Assembly (NCBI GenBank): GCA_043822705.1
Contig: JBDRBK010000005.1
Location: 1 to 31,691 of the forward strand
Direction of reading: 5' to 3'
Length of the DNA stretch: 31,691 nt
From: Fidelibacterota bacterium
GTDB lineage: Bacteria > Fidelibacterota > Marinisomatia > Marinisomatales > TCS56
The notes beneath the pieces are model-generated. The model had not been told where the DNA came from and made no database searches. It saw nothing but the letters and a program-made list of their open reading frames with translations. Shown one piece after another: positions 22,013-31,691 of the stretch (its first letter is position 1; each line of letters begins with the position of its first letter). The translations under genes and the position numbers were made by a program.

Positions 22013-22741
22013 TTACTTCAAAAGAATCATTTTTATTGTCTGCGATCGGGCACCGAGCGACAATCGTGCCAGATACACTCCGCCTGAGGCGAAATGTCCC
22101 TGTTGGTCGCACCCATCCCAAACTACCGATTTCCACCCGGAATCTTCAAAACCTTCCAGCAGTTGCCGCACCAGGCGGCCCCGCAGATCGTAAACACCTA
22201 AACTGATCCGAGCCGGTTCTTCCACCATATATGTTATTGTGGTTGCCGGATTGAACGGATTGGGGTAATTCTGTTCCAAACCAAACCGGCGCGGAACGGC
22301 CGATCCGGTTGTCAGTCCGACGATCGTGTTAACAGCATCAAAGATATGGGGCGTTGCGACCGTACCGATTGCATCATCGGCGACAAACTGAATCTGGCTG
22401 ATCACCGCCAGTACCGTATCCTGATCCGCGTCCCAGACTCTGAATGTAACTATCTCCCCGCTGCCATTGGCCCGGACCATCAGAAAATAGCGCCAATCGG
22501 CAGCGGCGGCGCTGGCAAACCCCAGCCCCCGACACTGATCGCCGACAAATGCTGCCACCAGATCATTATTGTCAACCGAAAGTTGAGCATTAATGGTAAT
22601 GACTCCGGTAATGGTCATGAAATGCTCAAAAGCGGCCGGATCGACCGTCCAATAGTCCGGTGGATCGGCCAGGGCAGCAACAACCGTTGTCAGGATCAGG
22701 ATGGCGGTGAGCAAACCACCGGACTGTTTACTGCTCTGCAT
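22013..22741 (-). CDS. Secreted protein with T9SS-type/FlgD Ig C-terminal sorting domain
   Basis: Signal peptide; one DLVAAFVGDQCRG domain also present twice in the upstream giant protein; QNYPNPFNPATTI...GGVYL...KMILLK. TAATG coupling. Confidence 0.85.
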   Translation of the reverse strand: MQSSKQSGGLLTAILILTTVVAALADPPDYWTVDPAAFEHFMTITGVITINAQLSVDNNDLVAAFVGDQCRGLGFASAAAADWRYFLMVRANGSGEIVTFRVWDADQDTVLAVISQIQFVADDAIGTVATPHIFDAVNTIVGLTTGSAVPRRFGLEQNYPNPFNPATTITYMVEEPARISLGVYDLRGRLVRQLLEGFEDSGWKSVVWDGCDQQGHFASGGVYLARLSLGARSQTIKMILLK

Positions 22742-25700
22742 TATTTTAACAAAACCATTTTCCGTACTTCACGGAAGTTTTTACTTTCCATTACCACGAT
22801 GTACACGCCGGAAGTGACGGGACGACCGCCTTCGTTGGTGCTGTTCCAGACTACGTAACGGTAACCTGCTGTCAAATTTTCGTCCACTAGTGTGCGCACC
22901 TCCTGCCCCAGCAGGTTGAAAATCCGAATTTTCACCCGGGCGTCTTCCGGAATCCCAAATCCCAGTTTGGTATTGGGATTGAATGGATTGGGGAAATTCT
23001 GGCTGAGCGAATACACGTCCGGCACGTAGCCGTAATCACCGACGCGCAGGGCGGCCCGAGTGAGCTCGACCGGCTGGGCCGGGTTACCGATTATGTCATC
23101 GGCCCTGAAGGTGAAAATTTCATTGGCCTGGTAGGTGATACCGCTTTCCGCCTCATGGATCTTCAGGCTGATAGTCTCGCCAGCAGTGCCGTATATCATC
23201 AGGAAGACCCGGTATTGTTCCAGTGCCGGGACATAAATCGGACGGGCTACACCGCGAACTTCATCGCCAACAAAAGCAGCCACTGCATCGGCAGGATCAT
23301 TTATGCCGACAGTGTCGCTTTCCAGCAGCAGCGTTGCCGTCATACTGGTCCGGAATTGGTTGGGATTGGCCTGCCAGCGCGTCTTCGGCAGTTCGCTGCC
23401 GTCGAATCTGGCCAACGGCGGCGGTTCGAAACTGCGGTAGGCGTCGGTGGGATAAACCAGTGTATCGATCGCCGCACTCCACAGCTTGTAGCCGTAGCCC
23501 GGCCGCAGCCAGCGCAGACTGCCGATCCAGCCGTAGCCTTCCAGATACTGGGCATAGGAAAATTGATCCTTCACCAGGTCGTCTGAACCACTATTCAGCG
23601 AATACAAGGCATCATTGATATTGAAATTCTTCGATGGCAGGTAGCCGACCCAGTTCCAGCCGTTGGCGATTGCGATATCGATCGTATCCGGTCCTACCGG
23701 AAATCCGACGTAGTCCAACGTATTGGCTGTGTCCAGGTCGCTATAGTACATCCGGCCCAGCTGCAATCCGGTTTCGGCCAGCGGTCCGGACCAGCTCTTG
23801 TCCAGCAGCGAATACTGGGCATACTTCTCCAAGCCGATCAAACGGTCGCCCTCCTGCAGTCGAAAATCACTGAAAAGGGAATCCAGGTTGCCAGCGAGTT
23901 CGCTCTCCAGATTGAAGGAGAACCAGGTGTAGCCCCGGGTCAACGCCAGTTCCTGGGCCACGGCACCATTGGCGTTCAATGCCAGCGGCGTCATGGGCGT
24001 ACCGGCGTAGGTATCGCCGGTGAAAATCAGGGTGGTATCCACCTGCCAGTATTCGGTGCAGCCGGTGCGGTCCCAGACATGGAAATCAACGATATCGCCG
24101 CTGTACTCATCGCTGTACACCGTCAGATAAGCGATGTAATCATCCAGCAAGACATTGTGCTCGATATTGATCAGACCACGACATTCGCCGTTGACAAAAG
24201 CACCCAGACGGTCGTACTCATCGAGAGATTGAGTTCCTTTGACAAAAATCCGGGCAGTAACATTCATACTGTACTGGTAGTCCCGCGGTTCAAACGCCCA
24301 GACCGGATACGGACACATCGACACGACATTGACTGCTAAAGGCTCCCTGCCATCCGGCGTAGCAGCATAAATCACTACGCTGAATTCACCTACATTCAGG
24401 TTAGGATCGATCGTAAATTGAATATTGAAGGAACCGCCGGGATTGATTTCCCCGACCTTGGGATTCGCCGTCAGCCATTCGGGCAGGTCGGTAATCTCAA
24501 AGGCCTTGGCGCTCGAACCAATGTTATTCAACGGAATCGAGAACTGATTGGTCTCACCGATAATGGCCATCAGGTCAGTGGCGGGGACATTCCACGCAAT
24601 TGGATTGCGGTTGACCTGGAATGACCAGTGTATTGTATCACCGGGATTGCCGTACATATCCTCGAAGCCGAAGATGGTCGCTTCCACAAAATGATTTTCA
24701 AGGAATGAATTGTGGATCTGTGGTATGATGACGATCCGTTCATTGGAAACGCTGACCTCAATATCGGTAATCTGGCCTCCGGCCTGGCCGTCATATAAGA
24801 TCACGTTGCTTCTTAATACCGTGGCCGGGTTGATTGCTTCCGTCAGGTTGACCGCAATTTCATCATTCATATTCAGCACCTGGTCCGTCGGCTCGGGAGC
24901 GCCAATGACGGTCGGCTTAACGCGATCAATCGTTCCGCGCAGGGGTGGCAGTTCATTGGTCAGCAATCCTTCCAGACAGATGGACCGTAGTCGTATGTCA
25001 TAGATGCCGTCCAGCAGGTCCCCGACCGGCCAGCGCAGGACGGCGGCCACCATGTTATAAAGCCGCAACGTATCGGCCTCCAGAATATCGTTGATCGTGA
25101 ACCAGGCATCACCACCCAAGGGGCGGTACTGGAGCCAAAGTTGATCAAAATGACTCTGCTTCAGATCAAAACCGGTAGTAACGATATCCAGGGTATCATT
25201 GTTATTGATATTAATCACCCAGTTATTAGAAGGGTCATAGATTTCGGCTTCGGTGCATGGTCGCGCAAAATTGACGGTAAAGGGCAGCGTGAAACCATCG
25301 GTAACACCGGCATAGTTCGCCTCACATTCCGGGGCGAATTTCAGTTGCAGATTTTCGTATTCATAATAATCATCCGGTCCGCACCAGACGGCGATCTGGG
25401 CGCTGTCGGCGGCATAGGCCGCCAGGGTATAGGGAATCGGGTCGCTGCCACCGTTAATTGATACATCTGCTCCCAGAGGATTGCTGGATTCGACAAAGGA
25501 CAGGAAGTAGGTCCGCTCTTCATCCTGATCGTTCCGGAGCAGGACCGACAACAGCGCTACATCGTCGGGCAGGATGTTGCTGATCGTTCCACCCGGTGCC
25601 TGCCATTCCATGTACGGTACATCCCGGGGGGTAGTTACGATGGTCCCTTCCTCATTATACCAGGTTTCGTAGGGGCAGGAGGAATTACCGGCGATCACAT

Positions 25701-28700
25701 GGAAAACCGGGGTACCATAGACAGGATCAGACCCGACGCTGACGCTATAATCATCACCGAAATCGTCGTCTTCCAGGGTGAATGACGAGGTATTAGAATT
25801 AGTCTGGGTACTAGAGGTATTAAAACCCATATTGAAACCGAAATTGAATTTTGTCGTAAACTCAAACCCTGCCGCATCATTCAATGAGAAACCAATTTTC
25901 TGGGCGAATTCAGTATTGATTTCCATCCCGATTTCAAAACTGGCGGCTTTTTCAACCTCGGAAGTCCGGGACATGCTGAATGCGCCCGCACCACCTTCGA
26001 AGGAATAGTTGACCGTATCCTCGGCGATCCAGCGCAGGGAATCTTCCCGGGCCAGAATATTATTCCAGCGTCGCACCGATTCCAGCATAGTGGAGTCGGT
26101 CATGGCCAAAAATTCCAGTTCCGGGACCAGGTAATCTTCGATATAGCCGCGTGTGTACACAAAGGTAGTGGCGAAACCGTCAGGCACGAAAATTACTTCG
26201 GATGTAAGCGCATACTGGTAAACATCATTAGCGTAGATCAGGTCCAGCACTTTCGTTTCACCGTAAAGCAGGTTCAGGGCGCCGCCGACAAATAAATCGC
26301 CGCGGTTGCCCAGCACTTCCTCAACATCACTGGTGGAATAGCTGGTCTCGCAACTCAGGCAGACTTTTTGCGATACATTACTGGAAGCACTGAAACTGGC
26401 TGAGATGCCTGATGTCATTTCATAGGTAGTTTCCATGTCAAGTTCGGTAGCTACGATCCAGCCGATCGAGGTCGTAACACCGACCCCCAGTTTGGCCGAA
26501 TATTCCTGGCTGTAGCCCATTGACGTACCCATGGTGAAACCAATTTCAGTACATTGCGATTGTGACGATGTAAACTCGGATACACTCTGATCCCCCGGTG
26601 GGCGACGCAGGATCAGGAAAGGAATATCCGGGGCGGTGGTAGTAAAATCCATCTGTTGCGGTTTATGCCCCAAAACAACGGCGCGGGCAGTCCTGACAAC
26701 CGCCGGACGCCCCAGGTTATCGGTGGCGATCACTTCGATTGACTTACTGTAGGGCGGACTTCCGGTCGGACTTATATTCGGCTGACCGGGTAAGAGTCCG
26801 TAGCGATACAGGCCATCACTGCTGAAAGTGGCGCTTACCGTATCCGACCGATCACTGATCAGATCGACAATCTTGTAAGTTCCACTGTCTACCGGACAAT
26901 CGAAATTGTCCCAATAGCGCTCGAATGCAAATAGATCCAGCGTATCGCGGACGTTCTGGCGGAATTGCTTGTGGCCCAATTCATTGATCGGGAAACCAGT
27001 GATCGAAGTCTGCATTGCCGTCCGGTAATTAAATACTATCGTATCTTCTTCGCCGATCCACAAAGAATCTATCTGTGAAAAGCTTTCTTCGGTGTTGACC
27101 GACTTGCCGCTATTGGCGAAATATTCATCCATTGCGATCAATTCCGGAACCGCAGGATTATAAGTACCGGTTTCATTGATATTAACCACCAACTGATAGG
27201 ACTGCGGCGGCAGGTTGAGGAAGAAATAATTACCCGAAGCGTCTACCGTGACCGATTTATTGAATAAACCGGAGCTTGGCCGCAACTCAACCTTGGCCAC
27301 TCCCCGTGGACCCAAGGGGCATTCGCAGATACCCCCGGTAACGGTTCCGCGAATAGTACGGGTTTTCAGGTCGATAAAATTGGCGGTACGATTGATTATC
27401 ACATTGGTGAAATCGGTGCTGTACGGGGAAAAGTCCACCATTTCGCGTGATACTTTATAGGGCTTGATATTGACATCGGCACCCGGCTCAACTTCCACGC
27501 GGTAAAAACCGTCTTTATCAGTCATGACGCCTTTGAATACGCCATTCACCCAGATCTGAACATTTGATTCACCACACTGGATGCCTTCGGTATTATCGGT
27601 ATCGTAGTAAACAAACCCGGTGATTGACATCAGGTTGGTAACAGTAAAATTCTGGCCGTTGGCCACCGGAGTGGCATCTGCCAGATAGACCAGTCGATAA
27701 GTCGGATTGAAGTCGTGGTATTCCTTAGTGGGCGTTAAAGTAAAATTGACCCCGCTGCCATAGTTTATATTATTGATCTGGTAATTACCGTCCAGATCGG
27801 TATAAGCGGTGGCATAGACCGGCGGTTTGGCGGTCGACCAGGTATCAACGGTAAGACTGGCAATCGTGCCATTCTTAGTCTGATCTACGGCATTAGTGAC
27901 AATCGAACCGGAGCCGCCATCCATATTAAACTGGGCGGTCATGTGCGGATAATTGACTTCACCCAGGGTCTGGTAGTACAAATAGCGGTTATAGTCACGG
28001 GCTAGATCTGTGGCCGACCGCGCTTCGTTCCAGAACAACAGATCATCGAGATTCCCCCGGAAAAACAGGCCGCTGGTTGATTTTCCAATTAATACTATAT
28101 CAGATACCTGGTCGCTATGGACCAGAGTATAAGCAGTCTGACCGGAATTGATTGTGGCAGCCTGACCGTTTATGAAGAATTTCAATACAGCATTACCGTC
28201 AGTGCCGACGGTTTTTACCAGGGCAATATGGGTCCATTCATCGACGCCGATAGTGGCATCGCTGGTCATTACGATGACTTCATTGACCTTGAATATCAGT
28301 TTACTGTAACCGGAAAGATTCAGCAGACCAATTTCCCAGTGACTGCCCTTGGAGATAAGCGCTTCATCAGCTACGCGGGTCGGCCGGAGCCAGAATTCCA
28401 CCGTTGCTTCAGGCAGGTCGGTGTTGTCGACAATTTCGAACTCATCCCCATCAGGTACCGTCGCATAATCATCCGTGCCGTTAAAATAGAGGGAAGTACC
28501 CCAATTGGGCGTAAGTGTCAGTTTGGCATTGGGAATTTTTGTCCCCAGCGAAGTAGCGATATTGCCCGAGACTGACCCCACCGTGGAAGTTTTACCGACC
28601 GCTGTCGTCGGTTCGACGGTCCAGCCAAACGAATTTTTCCCAAGGATTTTATAACTGTATTCAGTGCCTACATTCAACTCAACGGCATCATCGGTATAGC

Positions 28701-29151
28701 CGGTATTTTCAACGGGGTAATCATTGCGGATGATCACATCATTGCGATAAATATTATGCTTGATGGTAGCCGGTGGCGTGTTGGGGTCATAAGACCAGTC
28801 CAGGTCAATCCGGTCGGGAAATATTTCGTACGAGGCGGTCAGGTTAGCCCGACCCGGGGGGCGCAGCATCTGCGTCCAGAAACCCAGTTCCATACTGTAC
28901 CCACTACCAGTCATCGGGATAGCAGAAACAAACGGTTGTCCAACGATCACTGAAACCGATCCGACCAGGCGTTCCTCACCCACTTGAGCCGGTGCCAGGT
29001 AGCCGCTCATCAGTCCGGTACCACCGTTTATTATTACATGGTCCGACGTATACCCGGCAAAAGTCATTATCAGCAGCCAGGGAATCAACAGCACAGCCGA
29101 TCGCAACGGACTCCTGATGTGAGTAACCATATTACTTTTATTTGAATTCAT
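22741..29151 (-). CDS. 2136-aa secreted multidomain protein (FN3-like, LamG, CnaB/Ig-like, central Ser/Thr-rich domain, T9SS-type CTD)
   Basis: Signal-like N-terminus; LamG motifs SLYFNGTDDY, TVEFWLRP, WTHIALV, FRGNLDDLLFWN; TDxDGxY repeats; QNFPNPFNPNT...SGVY...KMVLLK. Confidence 0.88.
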   Translation of the reverse strand: MNSNKSNMVTHIRSPLRSAVLLIPWLLIMTFAGYTSDHVIINGGTGLMSGYLAPAQVGEERLVGSVSVIVGQPFVSAIPMTGSGYSMELGFWTQMLRPPGRANLTASYEIFPDRIDLDWSYDPNTPPATIKHNIYRNDVIIRNDYPVENTGYTDDAVELNVGTEYSYKILGKNSFGWTVEPTTAVGKTSTVGSVSGNIATSLGTKIPNAKLTLTPNWGTSLYFNGTDDYATVPDGDEFEIVDNTDLPEATVEFWLRPTRVADEALISKGSHWEIGLLNLSGYSKLIFKVNEVIVMTSDATIGVDEWTHIALVKTVGTDGNAVLKFFINGQAATINSGQTAYTLVHSDQVSDIVLIGKSTSGLFFRGNLDDLLFWNEARSATDLARDYNRYLYYQTLGEVNYPHMTAQFNMDGGSGSIVTNAVDQTKNGTIASLTVDTWSTAKPPVYATAYTDLDGNYQINNINYGSGVNFTLTPTKEYHDFNPTYRLVYLADATPVANGQNFTVTNLMSITGFVYYDTDNTEGIQCGESNVQIWVNGVFKGVMTDKDGFYRVEVEPGADVNIKPYKVSREMVDFSPYSTDFTNVIINRTANFIDLKTRTIRGTVTGGICECPLGPRGVAKVELRPSSGLFNKSVTVDASGNYFFLNLPPQSYQLVVNINETGTYNPAVPELIAMDEYFANSGKSVNTEESFSQIDSLWIGEEDTIVFNYRTAMQTSITGFPINELGHKQFRQNVRDTLDLFAFERYWDNFDCPVDSGTYKIVDLISDRSDTVSATFSSDGLYRYGLLPGQPNISPTGSPPYSKSIEVIATDNLGRPAVVRTARAVVLGHKPQQMDFTTTAPDIPFLILRRPPGDQSVSEFTSSQSQCTEIGFTMGTSMGYSQEYSAKLGVGVTTSIGWIVATELDMETTYEMTSGISASFSASSNVSQKVCLSCETSYSTSDVEEVLGNRGDLFVGGALNLLYGETKVLDLIYANDVYQYALTSEVIFVPDGFATTFVYTRGYIEDYLVPELEFLAMTDSTMLESVRRWNNILAREDSLRWIAEDTVNYSFEGGAGAFSMSRTSEVEKAASFEIGMEINTEFAQKIGFSLNDAAGFEFTTKFNFGFNMGFNTSSTQTNSNTSSFTLEDDDFGDDYSVSVGSDPVYGTPVFHVIAGNSSCPYETWYNEEGTIVTTPRDVPYMEWQAPGGTISNILPDDVALLSVLLRNDQDEERTYFLSFVESSNPLGADVSINGGSDPIPYTLAAYAADSAQIAVWCGPDDYYEYENLQLKFAPECEANYAGVTDGFTLPFTVNFARPCTEAEIYDPSNNWVININNNDTLDIVTTGFDLKQSHFDQLWLQYRPLGGDAWFTINDILEADTLRLYNMVAAVLRWPVGDLLDGIYDIRLRSICLEGLLTNELPPLRGTIDRVKPTVIGAPEPTDQVLNMNDEIAVNLTEAINPATVLRSNVILYDGQAGGQITDIEVSVSNERIVIIPQIHNSFLENHFVEATIFGFEDMYGNPGDTIHWSFQVNRNPIAWNVPATDLMAIIGETNQFSIPLNNIGSSAKAFEITDLPEWLTANPKVGEINPGGSFNIQFTIDPNLNVGEFSVVIYAATPDGREPLAVNVVSMCPYPVWAFEPRDYQYSMNVTARIFVKGTQSLDEYDRLGAFVNGECRGLINIEHNVLLDDYIAYLTVYSDEYSGDIVDFHVWDRTGCTEYWQVDTTLIFTGDTYAGTPMTPLALNANGAVAQELALTRGYTWFSFNLESELAGNLDSLFSDFRLQEGDRLIGLEKYAQYSLLDKSWSGPLAETGLQLGRMYYSDLDTANTLDYVGFPVGPDTIDIAIANGWNWVGYLPSKNFNINDALYSLNSGSDDLVKDQFSYAQYLEGYGWIGSLRWLRPGYGYKLWSAAIDTLVYPTDAYRSFEPPPLARFDGSELPKTRWQANPNQFRTSMTATLLLESDTVGINDPADAVAAFVGDEVRGVARPIYVPALEQYRVFLMIYGTAGETISLKIHEAESGITYQANEIFTFRADDIIGNPAQPVELTRAALRVGDYGYVPDVYSLSQNFPNPFNPNTKLGFGIPEDARVKIRIFNLLGQEVRTLVDENLTAGYRYVVWNSTNEGGRPVTSGVYIVVMESKNFREVRKMVLLK

Positions 29152-29208: not shown

Positions 29209-30888
29209 CTAATTATTCACCTGTTTTTCAAGGGCTTCAAGTCGTTTGACTAAATCATCAATGGCAATTTGTTGCCGATCGATCAGTTGTTGCTGCTCCT
29301 GAATAGCAGCAATCGCCAGGACCGAAAAATCTTCATATGTTAATCCAAGATAATCCTCATTTGCTTTCACAATATCAAGATCGGGAAATACTTCCTGGAC
29401 ATCCTGGGCAATGAAACCAATTGATTTTGGTTCGGAATCATCTTCGGTTTTCATATGATAAGTACTTGGCTTTAAGCCCAGCACTTTCGGTAAAACACTG
29501 CCGAGTGGCTCAATATTCTTCTTCAACCGGCGATCGCTGGAATGACCATAGGCGCCATCATCATCGTCGATCCAGCCTTCACCGCCAACACTGCAATGGA
29601 ATACCAGATCCTCATCCCCGGACTCATTATCGATACCAAAATCCCAATAGTCGGTACCGGCTTCCGAGCCGGAAGGTAGTTGAAGTCGTAGACTATAGGA
29701 ATTGGCATTGTCTGCTACCTTAGGGCCAATAATATGCATACTGCGCCCCGGGCTGGACGTACCAATGCCAACATTACCATTTGAAATAACCATATCAGCA
29801 ATGGAGCCAGTACGGTAAAAGGCAAACTGTGAACTGGTATTAAACCACATAGTGCTGCTGGAGATACCAAGACCATAGGAAGCAGCTGCCGTGCCACTTT
29901 TATATAGCAGAATTTGATACTCATCATAGGTGTTCACCGGAAGTTCAGCGACATTATTCACTATTTGCAGGTTACTCACCGGTGTTGTCGTTCCGACGGC
30001 CAGTTTGGATTGAATTGCAGTGCCGTTGGTATATTCCCCACCCCAGTTCAATATCAACTGATCCCATGATGTATTACCAAGTATTGCCAGGTTGCGATCA
30101 TCGCCGGAACTAGCTGACCCACCCTGTATCCAGACATCATAAATGTCGTCGGGATAATCATTCCGTATTTTTCCGCGGACATCAAGCGTGTTTGTTGGTG
30201 CAGCGGTGCCGATACCAATTGTACCATTGGCCCGTACATGGAAAATTGTTGAATAGTCTGCCGTGGCACTTTGACGGCCGACCACCGAATAACTATCCTG
30301 GGAATCGTTACCATCGATGCCAAACATCAGATGGGCGCTGGCGGGACCCTTGATAAAAGTACCGGACGTACTGCCGCCGGCCAGATTTATCGGATGGAGG
30401 CTACCGGTAAGGACCTGATGCGTTGCATTCGCAATTTGAGCGGAAAAACCTCCCACATCCAGCTTAAAGCTGGGTGAAGCCGTGCCGATACCCACATTAC
30501 CATCCTGCGGAAAAACATTGGTGATACCATTCATGCCGGCCATGACCGCATACGGGGATAGCGTCAGCTTGGTGCGCGGGCTTAATTCCGCGGCTCCATC
30601 TATGGAAATCCCCAGCCAGTAGCTGAGATTGTAATCCAGGCCGGCCAAACTGTTAACCGACCCTAGCAAAGCCGAATAGACACCATTGGTGACAGTCAGT
30701 GTCTGGGTTTCATTCCAGACGGCCGTGCCGCTGGTGGAAACAGTGTACAACTTGAATTGAATATTATAACTACCCTGAATAGACGCACCCGTATCATCGC
30801 GGATTACGCCCTGGATACTGAGTGTTTGCCCGAAAGACAGTGAAATGGCTATTAATAAAATTCCGGTCGCTAGTATGAATTGACGCAT
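29209..30888 (-). CDS. Secreted tail-fibre-like trimeric protein with C-terminal peptidase S74 intramolecular chaperone
   Basis: Sec signal peptide; N-domain SIQGVIRD...VWNETQ...NGVYSALLG...SPYA; four GNVGIGTxxP-type repeats; SSDRRLKKNI...GFIAQDV...coiled coil. RBS AAGGAGG. Confidence 0.9.
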   Translation of the reverse strand: MRQFILATGILLIAISLSFGQTLSIQGVIRDDTGASIQGSYNIQFKLYTVSTSGTAVWNETQTLTVTNGVYSALLGSVNSLAGLDYNLSYWLGISIDGAAELSPRTKLTLSPYAVMAGMNGITNVFPQDGNVGIGTASPSFKLDVGGFSAQIANATHQVLTGSLHPINLAGGSTSGTFIKGPASAHLMFGIDGNDSQDSYSVVGRQSATADYSTIFHVRANGTIGIGTAAPTNTLDVRGKIRNDYPDDIYDVWIQGGSASSGDDRNLAILGNTSWDQLILNWGGEYTNGTAIQSKLAVGTTTPVSNLQIVNNVAELPVNTYDEYQILLYKSGTAAASYGLGISSSTMWFNTSSQFAFYRTGSIADMVISNGNVGIGTSSPGRSMHIIGPKVADNANSYSLRLQLPSGSEAGTDYWDFGIDNESGDEDLVFHCSVGGEGWIDDDDGAYGHSSDRRLKKNIEPLGSVLPKVLGLKPSTYHMKTEDDSEPKSIGFIAQDVQEVFPDLDIVKANEDYLGLTYEDFSVLAIAAIQEQQQLIDRQQIAIDDLVKRLEALEKQVNN

Positions 30889-31184
30889 GATGGCCTCCTT
30901 GGTAGCATTACGCTTGATTTAACAATGGTCGTTATTCATGATAGAATTTTAAGGTGGTGCTGGCGATATAAGAATTCAGAAGTAAATATACCTACTGGTA
31001 CATGCAGGTACCGGTACAGCCAAACGCTGGTATCGGGCAGGGGGCGCCTGCAAAAATGATAAGTTAAGTTATCCAACTGTTCCCTGATTGGTTACTTAAA
31101 TTTGGTCCGATACTGCCAATATATCAAATTATTTTGATTGGTGGATATAAAGAAATATTCACTGTTCTGATAGCCCCGGCTGCA

Positions 31185-31200
31185 TTCGCCCGCGGGCGAA
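31185..31200. repeat. Perfect 16-bp palindrome at the distal end of the GIY-YIG array
   Basis: TTCGCCCGCGGGCGAA is self-complementary. Confidence 0.7.
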
Positions 31201-31248
31201 CTTTCACGTTGTCGACTGCACTCCTGCGAGACAAAGTCGAGTGAATAA

Positions 31249-31311
31249 GTGGCGTCCGCCCCAGGCGGATAAAAGTCGAACTTTACGCACCTATGGCGCG
31301 TCCCGTCCGAA
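31249..31311 (-). pseudogene. ssrA: Degenerate tmRNA 3'-end fragment, copy 1 (two 19-nt insertions; acceptor strand partly deleted)
   Basis: Identical to copy 2 from 31254 onward, but GTGGAGGCGGGGAG is reduced to GTGGCG. Confidence 0.55.
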
Positions 31312-31542
31312 TTGTTGATCCAACCACGCCCGACCCTTCCCGCTTTTCAGGAATTTCTCTCGTTCCCTGGCCGATCGATAATCGGAATATTCTTCGGTGA
31401 GCAATACATGAAAATCCCCGAGTATTTTCTGCACAGTTGATTTTGCCGACTGGTGCTCTTTTATCCTGCGGGCAAGATTATTGGTAATACCCACGTATCT
31501 TTTGTTCTTGGTTTTACCAGTTAACACATAGACCGTAATCAT
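31291..31542 (-). CDS. Small stand-alone GIY-YIG nuclease (UPF0213/SLX1-like), 83 aa
   Basis: VYVL...RYVGITNNLARRIKEH...AREREKFLKSG with the catalytic Tyr/Arg/His/Glu pattern. Confidence 0.92.
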   Translation of the reverse strand: MITVYVLTGKTKNKRYVGITNNLARRIKEHQSAKSTVQKILGDFHVLLTEEYSDYRSAREREKFLKSGKGRAWLDQQFGRDAP

Positions 31543-31560
31543 ATATAATCAATTCTTTCA

Positions 31561-31631
31561 GTGGAGGCGGGGAGTCCGCCCCAGGCGGATAAAAGTCGAA
31601 CTTTACGCACCTATGGCGCGTCCCGTCCGAA
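31561..31631 (-). pseudogene. ssrA: tmRNA 3'-end fragment, copy 2, interrupted by two 19-nt hairpin insertions
   Basis: Minus strand TTCGGACGGGA[19]GTTCGACT[19]CTCCCCGCCTCCAC. Without the inserts it reads GGAC-GGGAG-TTCGACT-CTCCC-CGCCTCC-AC: T-arm plus Ala-type acceptor strand, preceded by the tmRNA-typical GGAC. Confidence 0.75.
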
Positions 31632-31691
31632 TTGTTGATCCAACCACGCCCGACCCTTCCCGCTTTTCAGGAATTTCTCTCGTTCCCTGGC
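31611..31691 (-). CDS. Second GIY-YIG nuclease copy, 3' end only
   Basis: Identical to 31291-31371 (AREREKFLKSGKGRAWLDQQFGRDAP*). Confidence 0.85.
   Translation of the reverse strand, partial: AREREKFLKSGKGRAWLDQQFGRDAP

Follow-up and report, generated by a model that had tools for sequence, protein, structure and literature searches.

The right-hand end of the 31,691-nt window analysed here, which is the whole of contig C5 of a Fidelibacterota genome, carries a 320-bp unit whose make-up suggests a selfish DNA element of very small size, and we consider it probable (roughly 0.6) that the unit is a homing-type selfish cassette, similar to phage T4 SegB in its target and to the Ssn nucleases in its hairpins. 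The unit consists of an 18-nt leader, a gene for an 83-aa single-domain GIY-YIG protein and a 71-nt 3' module. We favour the selfish-element reading because the same kind of unit adjoins tRNA or tmRNA genes in many bacterial phyla, and the cassette of the window is probably one member of a large class, made up of minimal selfish cassettes that reside at such genes.

Repeat, gene and 3' module at the contig end

Sequence comparison revealed a direct repeat with a period of 320 nt, in which positions 31254-31371 are identical to positions 31574-31691 over the 118 nt given in the original prediction. By self-comparison the repeat covered 132 nt at 95%, and a second comparison gave 121 nt with one mismatch. 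The contig end at 31691 falls within the second unit, so that one full unit and 0.37 of another are visible; the repeat behind the predicted tandem array is thus real, but the array amounts here to at least 1.4 units because the contig ends inside it. The AT-rich leader and the GIY-YIG ORF were both recovered as predicted (Table 1), and each unit contains a single 83-aa ORF and, again as had been claimed, no integrase, transposase or reverse transcriptase. No promoter of its own was detected for the cassette, and ARAGORN reported no tRNA or tmRNA within the window. Logan contigs (from one run, at a depth of ~2) cover positions 30822-31034, 31126-31276 and 31283-31480, with zero coverage on 31488-31600 and none across the tandem junction. 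One read run contains 28% of the sampled words, and two others from the same sample or study contain next to none.

Table 1. Features at the right-hand end of the window, in order of position
Feature	Positions	Strand	Basis
559-aa gene with a Peptidase_S74 chaperone domain	29209..30888	-	Pfam; tblastx 78.6% over 117 aa to relative G004
Hairpin marking the ssrA-downstream flank	31211..31240	-	directly follows the tmRNA in relatives G004, G005 and G031
3' module of the distal unit	31241..31311	-	left part and hairpins the same, final 14 nt decayed
Intact 83-aa single-domain GIY-YIG gene of the distal unit	31291..31542	-	ORF and Pfam PF01541
AT-rich 18-nt leader, from tail copy to start codon	31543..31560	-	same leader behind the real tmRNA on contig C7
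Complete 71-nt 3' module of the proximal unit	31561..31631	-	compared with the tmRNA on contig C7
Proximal GIY-YIG gene, C-terminal 26 codons, cut by the contig end	31614..31691	-	tblastn, residues 58-83, 100% identity

The 83-aa protein matches the Pfam GIY-YIG family (PF01541) over residues 2-68 with an E-value of 1.7e-13 and a score of 51.1 bits against a cut-off of 22.6. This is the only domain found in it, and a separate DNA-binding domain is absent. Across 16 aligned sequences, residues Y5, Y16, R25/R26, H30 and E62 show little or no variation, and we take the conserved Tyr, Arg and Glu to be catalytic, partly from what is known of GIY-YIG enzymes. The assignment of these roles also leans on mutants of SsnA (PMC11893778), in which, by its published description, the two Tyr and the Glu stand at positions 6, 17 and 64, compared with 5, 16 and 62 here. 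An AlphaFold2 model of the protein (pLDDT 92.5) contains strands at residues 2-9, 15-20 and 44-52 together with four helices, in keeping with the three-strand sheet and flanking helices of GIY-YIG domains, and its nearest folds in Foldseek were UPF0213 and Slx1, with TM values of 0.56-0.65; a profile search gave an E-value of 1.2e-4 to PDB 1ZG2. PHROG homing-endonuclease models align with residues 1-34 only, searches of PHROGs and PADLOC returned weak, partial and generic GIY-YIG matches alone, and the sole match in NCBIfam was to TIGR01453 (group I intron endonuclease; E 8.8e-6), which at 25.9 bits lies below the cut-off of 56.

The 3' module is a second copy of the last ~25 nt of the tmRNA in which the T-loop has been swapped for three GC-rich hairpins. 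Its left part (31631-31621) consists of 11 nt identical to the tmRNA immediately before the T-stem, and the last sense codons of the ORF, from Phe-Gly-Arg onward, come from these 11 nt, as the original prediction had it. The insert that replaces the T-loop (31620-31575) comprises 46 nt, contains the stop codon and forms the three hairpins, and the right part (31574-31561) is made up of the tmRNA's last 13 nt and one further base. The predicted tmRNA-like 3' end of the unit is therefore indeed derived from tmRNA, but it is not contiguous. The 29-nt tmRNA terminus that had been placed within the units has no match in the window at up to three mismatches; it does occur in the genome, exactly and once, as the 3' end of ssrA at C7:19898-19926. 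Nor does each unit end in a copy of the tmRNA terminus, since of the last 14 nt of the distal module (31254-31241) only 8 agree with the tmRNA tail, and this stretch represents a decayed tail.

When folded as DNA, the module forms its three hairpins within a closing stem (z -2.6). Across nine modules from at least five lineages, 95.1% of the cells in the hairpin stems were paired, against 85.1 ± 1.6% after shuffling (0/500), and six pairs had changed on both sides (2/500 shuffles), compared with none in slid controls. The SRM motif of the Ssn system had no match in the window and two in the 432,688 nt of loci L001-L150, against 1-6 in 20 shuffles, and Rfam at E <= 1 detected tmRNA alone, and no intron, in the four loci L001, L026, L004 and L002. 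A 20-nt pattern based on the middle hairpin had two matches in metagenomes, both inside an unrelated gene, and these were rejected as cassettes.

The right end of the window appears to lie just downstream of ssrA, a placement that draws on synteny and on a hairpin common to the relatives. This flank hairpin is 82% identical, across 33 nt, to the sequence that begins right after the tmRNA in two of them (G004 and G005), and a homologue of the Peptidase_S74 gene is found ~1 kb downstream of the tmRNA in G004, which makes this gene a synteny anchor outside the cassette. The genome's only tmRNA gene is uninterrupted and resides on another contig, C7, where it is followed by the same 18-nt leader and by a third copy of the cassette, 97% identical and frameshifted, beyond which there is an acyltransferase gene and not contig C5. 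Because the assembled ssrA runs into a frameshifted copy and then into unrelated DNA, we infer the connection between C5 and ssrA rather than read it from the assembly, and the arrangement requires that there be two loci, two strains or a chimaera. The prediction of an ssrA gene beyond the right edge thus agrees with synteny and the shared hairpin, but the assembled ssrA is not continuous with C5. It is nevertheless probable that the right end of the window is the downstream border of a Fidelibacterota/Marinimicrobia ssrA locus, occupied by at least one full and one partial 320-bp cassette.

Related cassettes at other tRNA and tmRNA genes

In the same genome, two cassettes stand behind the tRNA-Ser(tga) gene on contig C94; they share 95.7% identity at a period of 302, and each of them terminates in the 3' part of tRNA-Ser(tga) with a hairpin in the T-loop, and further cassettes are found at tRNA-Asn (C211) and tRNA-Ser(cga) (C151). 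Matches in 25 of 41 genomes of relatives yielded 78 unique GIY ORFs, of which 57 lie directly behind a tRNA or tmRNA gene (44, with a same-strand RNA-gene 3' end at most 200 nt upstream) or behind another cassette (13); the chance expectation is ~0.13% per ORF (200 nt behind each of 43 RNA genes, in 2 x 3.34 Mb). The remaining ORFs are located at 200-800 nt from an RNA gene (2), at a contig edge (6) or near none (13). The last 12 nt of the RNA gene were repeated, with at most one mismatch, in 32 of the 44 RNA-gene-linked loci, mostly 300-320 nt per unit downstream, and each cassette has a tail that corresponds to the RNA gene beside it, for 14 kinds of such genes, namely tmRNA and 13 tRNA anticodon types. 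An independent sample of the phylum gave a match in 102 of 151 genomes, and its 25 new loci were distributed as follows: 18 directly behind a tRNA or tmRNA gene, two behind a cassette, one at 354 nt, three at a contig edge and one with none. In more than 12 phyla, RNA genes are accompanied by proteins that are ~60% identical; among 80 loci drawn from more than 12 phyla, 42 were behind a tRNA or tmRNA gene, 24 directly in front of one, seven at an edge and seven with none, and those of the 'in front' loci that were examined have a hairpin-disrupted 5' copy of that tRNA upstream. The expectation that homologues would sit beside tRNA or tmRNA genes whose 3' ends are duplicated was therefore borne out, frequently with tandem copies, in this genome and in many others.

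Tandem pairs whose units have diverged are present on C94 and in two relatives (G012 and G025), and four other pairs are 100% identical between units. For such identical pairs the copy number can be mis-set by short-read assemblers, and the unit junction could also be that of a circular form. In another relative (G035) the tmRNA is followed by two units with a period of 320 within an 84-kb contig, and these two units make up all the sequence that separates the tmRNA from the flanking gene.

The cassettes are present at some orthologous sites and absent from others. A GIY gene is found downstream of the tmRNA at 12 of 30 tmRNA loci and not at 15, each with at least 875 nt of flank, while three loci are not assessable. 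One family provides a filled and an unfilled site (G136 and G031, respectively), which have a downstream gene in common (65% identity over 457 nt) at an offset of 377 nt. A candidate empty ssrA site in G004 was ruled out by an HMM scan, which detected a GIY cassette of another lineage. Decay is also evident, since frameshifted copies, including that on C7, and truncated copies exist and solo modules that have no ORF are found in two relatives (G040 and G017). In a protein tree obtained by a quick search on 84 columns, in which 67 of 147 inner branches are unresolved, the labels of the target RNA gene switch across the tree. No movement event of the cassette was seen.

Known systems and a possible route of spread

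Phage T4 SegB, a protein of ~220 aa with a DNA-binding part, resembles the cassette protein in its GIY-YIG catalytic domain and in having a free-standing gene among tRNA genes. It differs in that the cassette protein, at 83 aa, is the catalytic domain alone, and in that SegB is a phage gene whereas the cassettes are chromosomal in many phyla. The recognition site of SegB contains a conserved tRNA TpsiC stem-loop motif, and SegB is described as spreading by break and repair without an integrase (PMC2330249), a mode that we infer for the cassette as well; the abstract of that paper mentions neither a hairpin module nor an interrupted duplicated RNA-gene end nor tandem arrays. When set beside Seg-type homing genes in general, the cassettes show presence and absence at orthologous sites but have no separate DNA-binding domain.

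SsnA from Neisseria meningitidis (cd10448) is a 94-aa single-domain GIY-YIG protein that binds an ssDNA hairpin and cuts beside it (PMC11893778). The cassette protein is likewise a single GIY-YIG domain, and its 83 aa fall within the ~80-100 aa expected of a protein of this type (~90 aa). The ssn gene is moreover flanked by cognate GC-rich inverted repeats, an arrangement that its authors likened to an insertion sequence (PMC11893778). In contrast, the hairpins of the cassette do not match the published SRM motif (inverted repeats of 20-50 nt), and the NTS/SRM hairpins are dispersed in hundreds of copies (PMC11893778) whereas the cassette has its hairpins within the duplicated end of an RNA gene. 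The main text of the Ssn paper uses none of the words tRNA, tmRNA and tandem (PMC11893778).

Tyrosine-integrase islands use the same target region, keep the gene intact by means of a duplicated 3' end and can stack in tandem, but the cassette has no integrase, measures 320 bp rather than kilobases and contains a repeat that is interrupted by a conserved hairpin module. The best matches in both sequence and fold are UPF0213/YhbQ-type proteins and the Slx1 nuclease domain (PDB 1ZG2, 1YWL, 7CQ2 and 6SEH); the YhbQ-like genes of the same genomes, however, form a separate, long-branched clade of seven rows in the protein tree, none of them labelled tRNA-adjacent. Slx1 itself requires Slx4 and acts on branched DNA. 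Integron cassettes, which are promoterless ORFs with a folded imperfect palindrome arranged head to tail behind one strong promoter, offer an analogy, although the cassettes described here have no integron integrase, all encode the same nuclease and have their site inside an RNA gene. A full-text literature search, judged by titles, found no published description of the cassette class, and the terms 'GIY' and 'tandem' have no occurrence in the passages searched of the 2025 tmRNA database paper (PMC11915505).

These comparisons suggest how a homing-type cassette might spread. Insertion would not disrupt the RNA gene, since the terminal part of that gene would then exist in two copies, and the spare terminal copy would be disabled by the hairpins. 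The nuclease gene is probably carried on the transcript of the RNA gene. Its product may recognise T-arm DNA and/or its own hairpins, possibly as ssDNA in the manner of SsnA, and then break the DNA, whereupon host recombination would copy the cassette into unoccupied alleles. Since each insertion would regenerate an intact RNA gene, tandem arrays could build, growing either by repeated events or by unequal recombination between tail copies, and the distal, older copies would decay. Against homing it must be said that an 83-aa hydrolytic nuclease lacks a separate DNA-binding domain and is unable to join DNA, and that cleavage of the T-arm would endanger the intact resident RNA gene as well. A bolder version, which we put forward only tentatively, is that the cassettes are autonomous mobile elements of ~300-450 bp, in which a sole 80-90-aa GIY-YIG nuclease reads a folded ssDNA signal and which copy themselves into the T-loop region of genes for tRNA and tmRNA across bacterial phyla. 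The signal would be the hairpins of the element itself and/or the hairpin formed by the T-arm of tRNA-type genes. Every insertion would restore the RNA gene, which would allow arrays to grow, and each protein lineage would have co-evolved with its hairpin and its target RNA gene.

Alternative readings and what a mobile cassette would mean

The alternative that survives best, though we consider it unlikely, is that of a resident domesticated host gene, i.e. a small Ssn/UPF0213-type nuclease that is retained in tRNA/tmRNA operons because it serves the cell, for example by controlling incoming ssDNA or recombination near RNA genes. The duplicated RNA-gene ends and the arrays would then have arisen by local duplication and gene conversion of the ordinary kind. 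For SsnA, its authors have proposed that the protein serves the host in transformation (PMC11893778), and both the copies in 102 of 151 genomes of the phylum and the invariance of catalytic-type residues across the 16 aligned sequences are compatible with such a role. The tRNA-Ser(tga) gene is occupied in two genera of the family, by a separate pair of copies in each, and the copies are more alike within than between genomes; this occupancy fits long residence or domestication as well as it fits mobility. A resident gene is, however, difficult to reconcile with the patchy occupancy of ssrA (12 of 30 loci with the gene and 15 without), with the filled and unfilled sites in one family, or with the frameshifted and truncated copies and the ORF-less modules. 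The ~60% identical proteins at RNA genes of more than 12 phyla, the switching of target labels on the tree and a tail that follows the local RNA gene in all its 14 kinds also argue against it.

It is less probable still that the tandem in the window is an effect of assembly, in which case there would be one chromosomal copy and the repeat would be a collapsed or unrolled one, a second strain or a circular excised form. The contig does stop inside the repeat at a junction that no Logan contig covers, the contamination estimate is 6%, and a near-identical third copy is located on another contig behind the only tmRNA. Yet the junction joins a hairpin module to a tail and leader, a combination that a single copy behind the tmRNA would lack, and the diverged tandem pairs on C94 (95.7%) and in G012 and G025 cannot be unrolling artefacts.

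The duplicated tmRNA ends could in principle be the att scars of a tyrosine-integrase island in ssrA whose integrase lies beyond the contig edge, as tmRNA genes are frequent island sites (PMC11915505) and the DNA to the right of the edge is unassembled. We regard this as very improbable, given that copies of the tail, spaced 320 nt apart, flank just one 83-aa gene, that the two-unit interval in G035 offers no space for an integrase, that the tail copies, unlike att repeats, contain a conserved hairpin insert and that the same pattern is seen at 13 tRNA anticodon types. It is just as improbable that the cassette descends from a group I intron that carried a homing-endonuclease gene within the TpsiC loop of tmRNA, for although group I introns use four subsites of this loop in 883 tmRNA sequences (PMC11915505) and the TIGR01453 match is of that kind, if weak, Rfam detected no intron in the four loci, the insert is only 46 nt long, the functional tmRNA copy is uninterrupted with the ORF outside it, and the homing-endonuclease genes reported in those introns are LAGLIDADG (PMC11915505).

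If the homing-type selfish cassette that we favour is mobile, it would define the minimum for a site-specific selfish element, namely one catalytic domain and a folded DNA signal, and it would be parked harmlessly because the RNA gene that it enters is rebuilt. As elements of ~300-450 bp, such cassettes might conceivably rank among the smallest self-encoded DNA elements known, and they would join islands, introns and permutation as a fourth type of DNA exploiting the TpsiC region of tmRNA. Pairs of nucleases and cognate hairpins of differing specificity could serve as ssDNA-cutting reagents. Mobile cassettes would also provide a natural genomic context for the newly characterised Ssn-like single-domain nucleases, would account for many of the broken tRNA-like fragments and of the unannotated 'GIY-YIG family protein' genes near tRNA genes, and would perhaps explain why contigs frequently break at tRNA genes.

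Anatomy of the repeat unit

A direct repeat with a period of 320 bp was detected by repeat search at the right end of the window, and sequence comparison established that positions 31574-31691 are identical to 31254-31371, the contig terminating at 31691. This contig, C5, is the window in full and belongs to an assembly of 218 contigs and 3.34 Mb, with 93% completeness and 6% contamination; judging by how the nearest protein relatives are named, it probably comes from Fidelibacterota/Marinimicrobia. The repeat of the original prediction is therefore real, whereas its description of the unit's end as tmRNA-like has to be revised: the end is an interrupted mimic of the tmRNA end and not a plain copy. 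The unit consists of a leader, a gene and a module, and the 83-aa product of the gene is a GIY-YIG domain alone (Pfam E 1.7e-13, residues 2-68).

Features of the window and cassettes elsewhere in the source genome
Feature	Location	Strand	Remarks
Leader, 18 nt, AT-rich	window 31560-31543	minus	sequence
83-aa ORF	window 31542-31291	minus	ORF call; Pfam GIY-YIG
71-nt module		minus	one of three parts of unit; overlaps ORF 3' end
Sigma-70-like site	window 31521-31549	plus	11/12 matches; -10 is the AT-rich leader
Hairpin past distal unit	window 31240-31211
16-nt palindrome	window 31185-31200		perfect, GC-rich
S74 protein gene	window 29209-30888	minus	559 aa; direct repeats at 29758, 30205, 30481
2136-aa protein gene	window 22741-29151	minus	Laminin_G_3, Big_5, FlgD_ig domains
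tmRNA 3' end (29 nt)	C7:19898-19926		sole tmRNA gene
Locus L026, with tmRNA, leader and third cassette copy	C7:19577-20196		leader and copy follow the sole tmRNA
Two tandem cassettes	C94:16294-16946	same as tRNA	behind tRNA-Ser(tga); period 302, units 95.7% identical
One cassette, preceded by 119-nt ORF-less unit	C211:2600-3041	same as tRNA	behind tRNA-Asn
One decayed cassette	C151:4484-4853	same as tRNA	behind tRNA-Ser(cga)

The 29-nt tmRNA-like end proposed earlier is absent from the window, even at 3 mismatches, and ARAGORN detected neither tRNA nor tmRNA genes within it; the 29-mer does correspond to the tmRNA 3' end of this genome, where it occurs once, on contig C7. Compared with the C7 tmRNA, the module comprises 11 nt identical to the tmRNA immediately ahead of the T-stem, from which, as had been noticed, the Phe-Gly-Arg codons are read, then a 46-nt insert containing the stop codon, and finally the last 13 nt of the tmRNA plus one base. 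Folded as either DNA or RNA, this insert gives three hairpins closed by a stem of the two T-stem halves (z -2.6). The tail of the distal unit is decayed (8/14 of its final positions identical by hand count).

Among nine modules, the outer two hairpins and the closing stem covary: 95.1% of cells are paired, compared to 85.1 ± 1.6% in shuffles (0/500 reaching 95.1%), and six pairs are altered on both sides, a number reached by 2/500 shuffles, with slid controls giving 0. Because nine related sequences are few, the covariation is supportive of a conserved fold and not decisive. Cassettes linked to tmRNA in Ignavibacteria, Sumerlaeota, Zixibacteria and two unclassified MAGs retain the three-hairpin plan. 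In the relatives' loci the hairpin type varies with protein lineage: one type is set in the T-loop at Ser, Leu and Glu tRNAs, another precedes a copied 3' part of 17-31 nt at Pro, Ala, Gly and Val tRNAs, and the three-hairpin type accompanies tmRNA.

No promoter-like site was found upstream of the ORF on its own strand, which suggests that the cassette gene would be transcribed from the tmRNA promoter. Opposite the beginning of the nuclease gene, on the other strand, is a strong sigma-70-like site, which may reflect chance or an antisense promoter in every unit.

The locus at the end of the contig

The hairpin immediately past the distal unit has 82% identity over 33 nt to sequence directly 3' of tmRNA in the related genomes G004 and G005, and such a hairpin is also present in a third relative, G031. 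The next window gene encodes a protein with a Peptidase_S74 domain, a homologue of which (78.6% over 117 aa) lies ~1 kb downstream of tmRNA in G004. The right end of the window is therefore, from hairpin and synteny, the region downstream of the tmRNA gene, ssrA, and in agreement with the original prediction ssrA is expected past the right edge and not on C5. Just past the hairpin lies a palindrome similar to the outer hairpins of tmRNA-type modules, which may be a solo remnant. The S74 protein, named for its endosialidase chaperone domain, contains a repeated short internal motif, and the gene for a 2136-aa protein follows.

On C7, the same leader follows the sole tmRNA of the genome, and next comes a third cassette copy, 97% identical, which lacks one base after roughly codon 10 and has a module that stops after the first hairpin; beyond it lie unrelated DNA and an acyltransferase gene on the other strand. 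C5 and C7 may come from different strains, be separate loci or reflect a mis-join. Low-depth Logan contigs from one run cover the distal junction (31126-31276), and none crosses the unit-to-unit junction. Touching on the same question, contigs C1 and C54 of one relative, G002, yield two tmRNA matches of full length, at 191 and 172 bits, and the pair may reflect a second locus or contamination.

Cassettes at tRNA and tmRNA genes

Searching the source genome by tblastn with the 83-aa protein revealed four further copies, each just behind an RNA gene on the same strand. Each C94 unit ends in the 3' part of tRNA-Ser(tga) with a 34-nt hairpin inside the T-loop, and since the units differ at 13 positions the tandem pair is not an unrolled assembly cycle. 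In the relative G035, tmRNA is followed by two identical 320-nt units and then the flanking gene, inside an 84-kb contig.

Homologues were present in 25 of 41 related genomes. All listed matches were fetched and ORFs were located with a profile built from them, giving 78 unique ORFs, of which 44 have a tRNA or tmRNA 3' end ≤200 nt upstream on the same strand; in half of these the distance is within 21 nt, and some overlap. Chance predicts about 0.13%, from 43 RNA genes with 200 nt each on the two strands of 3.34 Mb. A further 13 lie behind another cassette, 2 have a tRNA or tmRNA 200-800 nt upstream, 6 are at a contig edge and 13 have no RNA gene. Seven ORFs with no tRNA close by belong to a longer YhbQ-like subfamily, on a separate long branch of the tree: five are among the last 13, one is at a contig edge and one lies 765 nt behind a tRNA. 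At 32 of the 44 linked loci the last 12 nt of the locus's own RNA gene are repeated downstream (≤1 mismatch), typically once per 300-320-nt unit; homologues next to ssrA or tRNA genes with duplicated 3' ends, as originally envisaged, are thus a recurrent arrangement.

In a phylum-wide sample, 102 of 151 genomes had a match (E ≤ 1e-8); 18 of 25 new loci were directly behind a tRNA or tmRNA, 2 behind another cassette, 1 at 354 nt behind a tRNA, 3 at an edge and 1 without an RNA gene nearby. A cross-phylum scan (one genome per species, 16-protein alignment as query) gave 551 confirmed places, the best 80 of which come from more than 12 phyla: 42 are behind a tRNA or tmRNA (6 behind tmRNA), 24 immediately precede a tRNA, 7 are at an edge and 7 have no RNA gene. 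Several of eight inspected loci in front of a tRNA are mirror images, in which the 5' part or whole tRNA is copied, followed by the ORF and then the intact tRNA, with hairpins inside the D-loop or T-loop of the copy. Examples from other phyla are L072, L116, L128, L134 and L142, L128 having four hairpins in a row. Among 1.84 billion cluster representatives, 1214 matched the protein at E ≤ 1e-3 and 83 at ≤ 1e-10.

Full tmRNA was found in 35 of the 41 genomes (36 genes), and 30 loci were examined: 12 have a GIY gene within the available downstream sequence, 15 have none in at least 875 nt, and in 3 the sequence is too short for a call. Two of the 12 belong to other GIY lineages with other hairpins: L161 (G011:C7) has a duplicated tmRNA end with a 37-nt hairpin right after the T-stem, and L170 (G004:C50) a GIY gene with a hairpin-bearing segment, about 55 nt long, directly repeated on either side. 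In a same-family pair, filled in G136 and not in G031, the common downstream gene (65%/457 nt) is displaced by 377 nt. ORF-less modules lie behind tmRNA of G040 and tRNA-Leu of G017. The tmRNA contigs of G014, G021, G006, G005 and G020 stop 9-328 nt downstream of tmRNA, where repeats might break assemblies, or by coincidence.

Known systems and cassette lineages

An AlphaFold2 model of the 83-aa protein (16-row alignment) had a pLDDT of 92.5, and its top fold matches, at weak E-values and TM 0.55-0.65, were UPF0213 protein 1ZG2 (profile match E 1.2e-4), Slx1, HIGLE, the I-TevI catalytic domain and UvrC-N. Across the 16-protein alignment, little or no variation is seen at Tyr5, Tyr16, Arg25/26, His30 and Glu62.

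SegB of phage T4 is a free-standing GIY-YIG homing endonuclease within a tRNA cluster, whose site includes the TpsiC stem-loop motif (PMC2330249). The enzyme SsnA, 94 aa long, consists of one GIY-YIG domain, binds its hairpin only in single-stranded DNA and cleaves a few bases to the 5' side, and such hairpins flank its gene; tRNA, tmRNA and tandem are not mentioned in the main text (PMC11893778). The cassette is like SegB in its target, while its protein and hairpins are like those of Ssn. The published SRM motif of Ssn does not fit the cassette hairpins. The only two SRM matches among fetched loci, a total at chance level, are L076:1081 (+) and L087:2004 (-); both have the look of true NTS-type hairpins, and each is no more than about 0.5 kb from a cassette. 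In the 2025 tmRNA database paper (PMC11915505), gene forms are given as standard, intron or permuted, with islands in addition, and none is like these cassettes; nothing closer than SegB or Ssn was found in the literature searched on GIY-YIG genes at tRNA or tmRNA genes. On this likeness, membership of either family is at most putative. Overall, comparative anatomy favours a selfish cassette, the part of the original prediction that stands as the best-supported reading, with a probability of about 0.6; its account of the tmRNA end does not stand.

In a quick, low-resolution tree (154 proteins, 84 columns), RNA-gene labels were clustered, with 62 changes compared to 107 in shuffles (0/200 as low), and the tmRNA label still needed 2-5 changes. 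The window's protein clusters with other tmRNA-linked proteins of Fidelibacterota, and tmRNA-linked proteins from other phyla are placed among tRNA-linked ones. This pattern fits cassette lineages that mostly retain their target and sometimes switch it.
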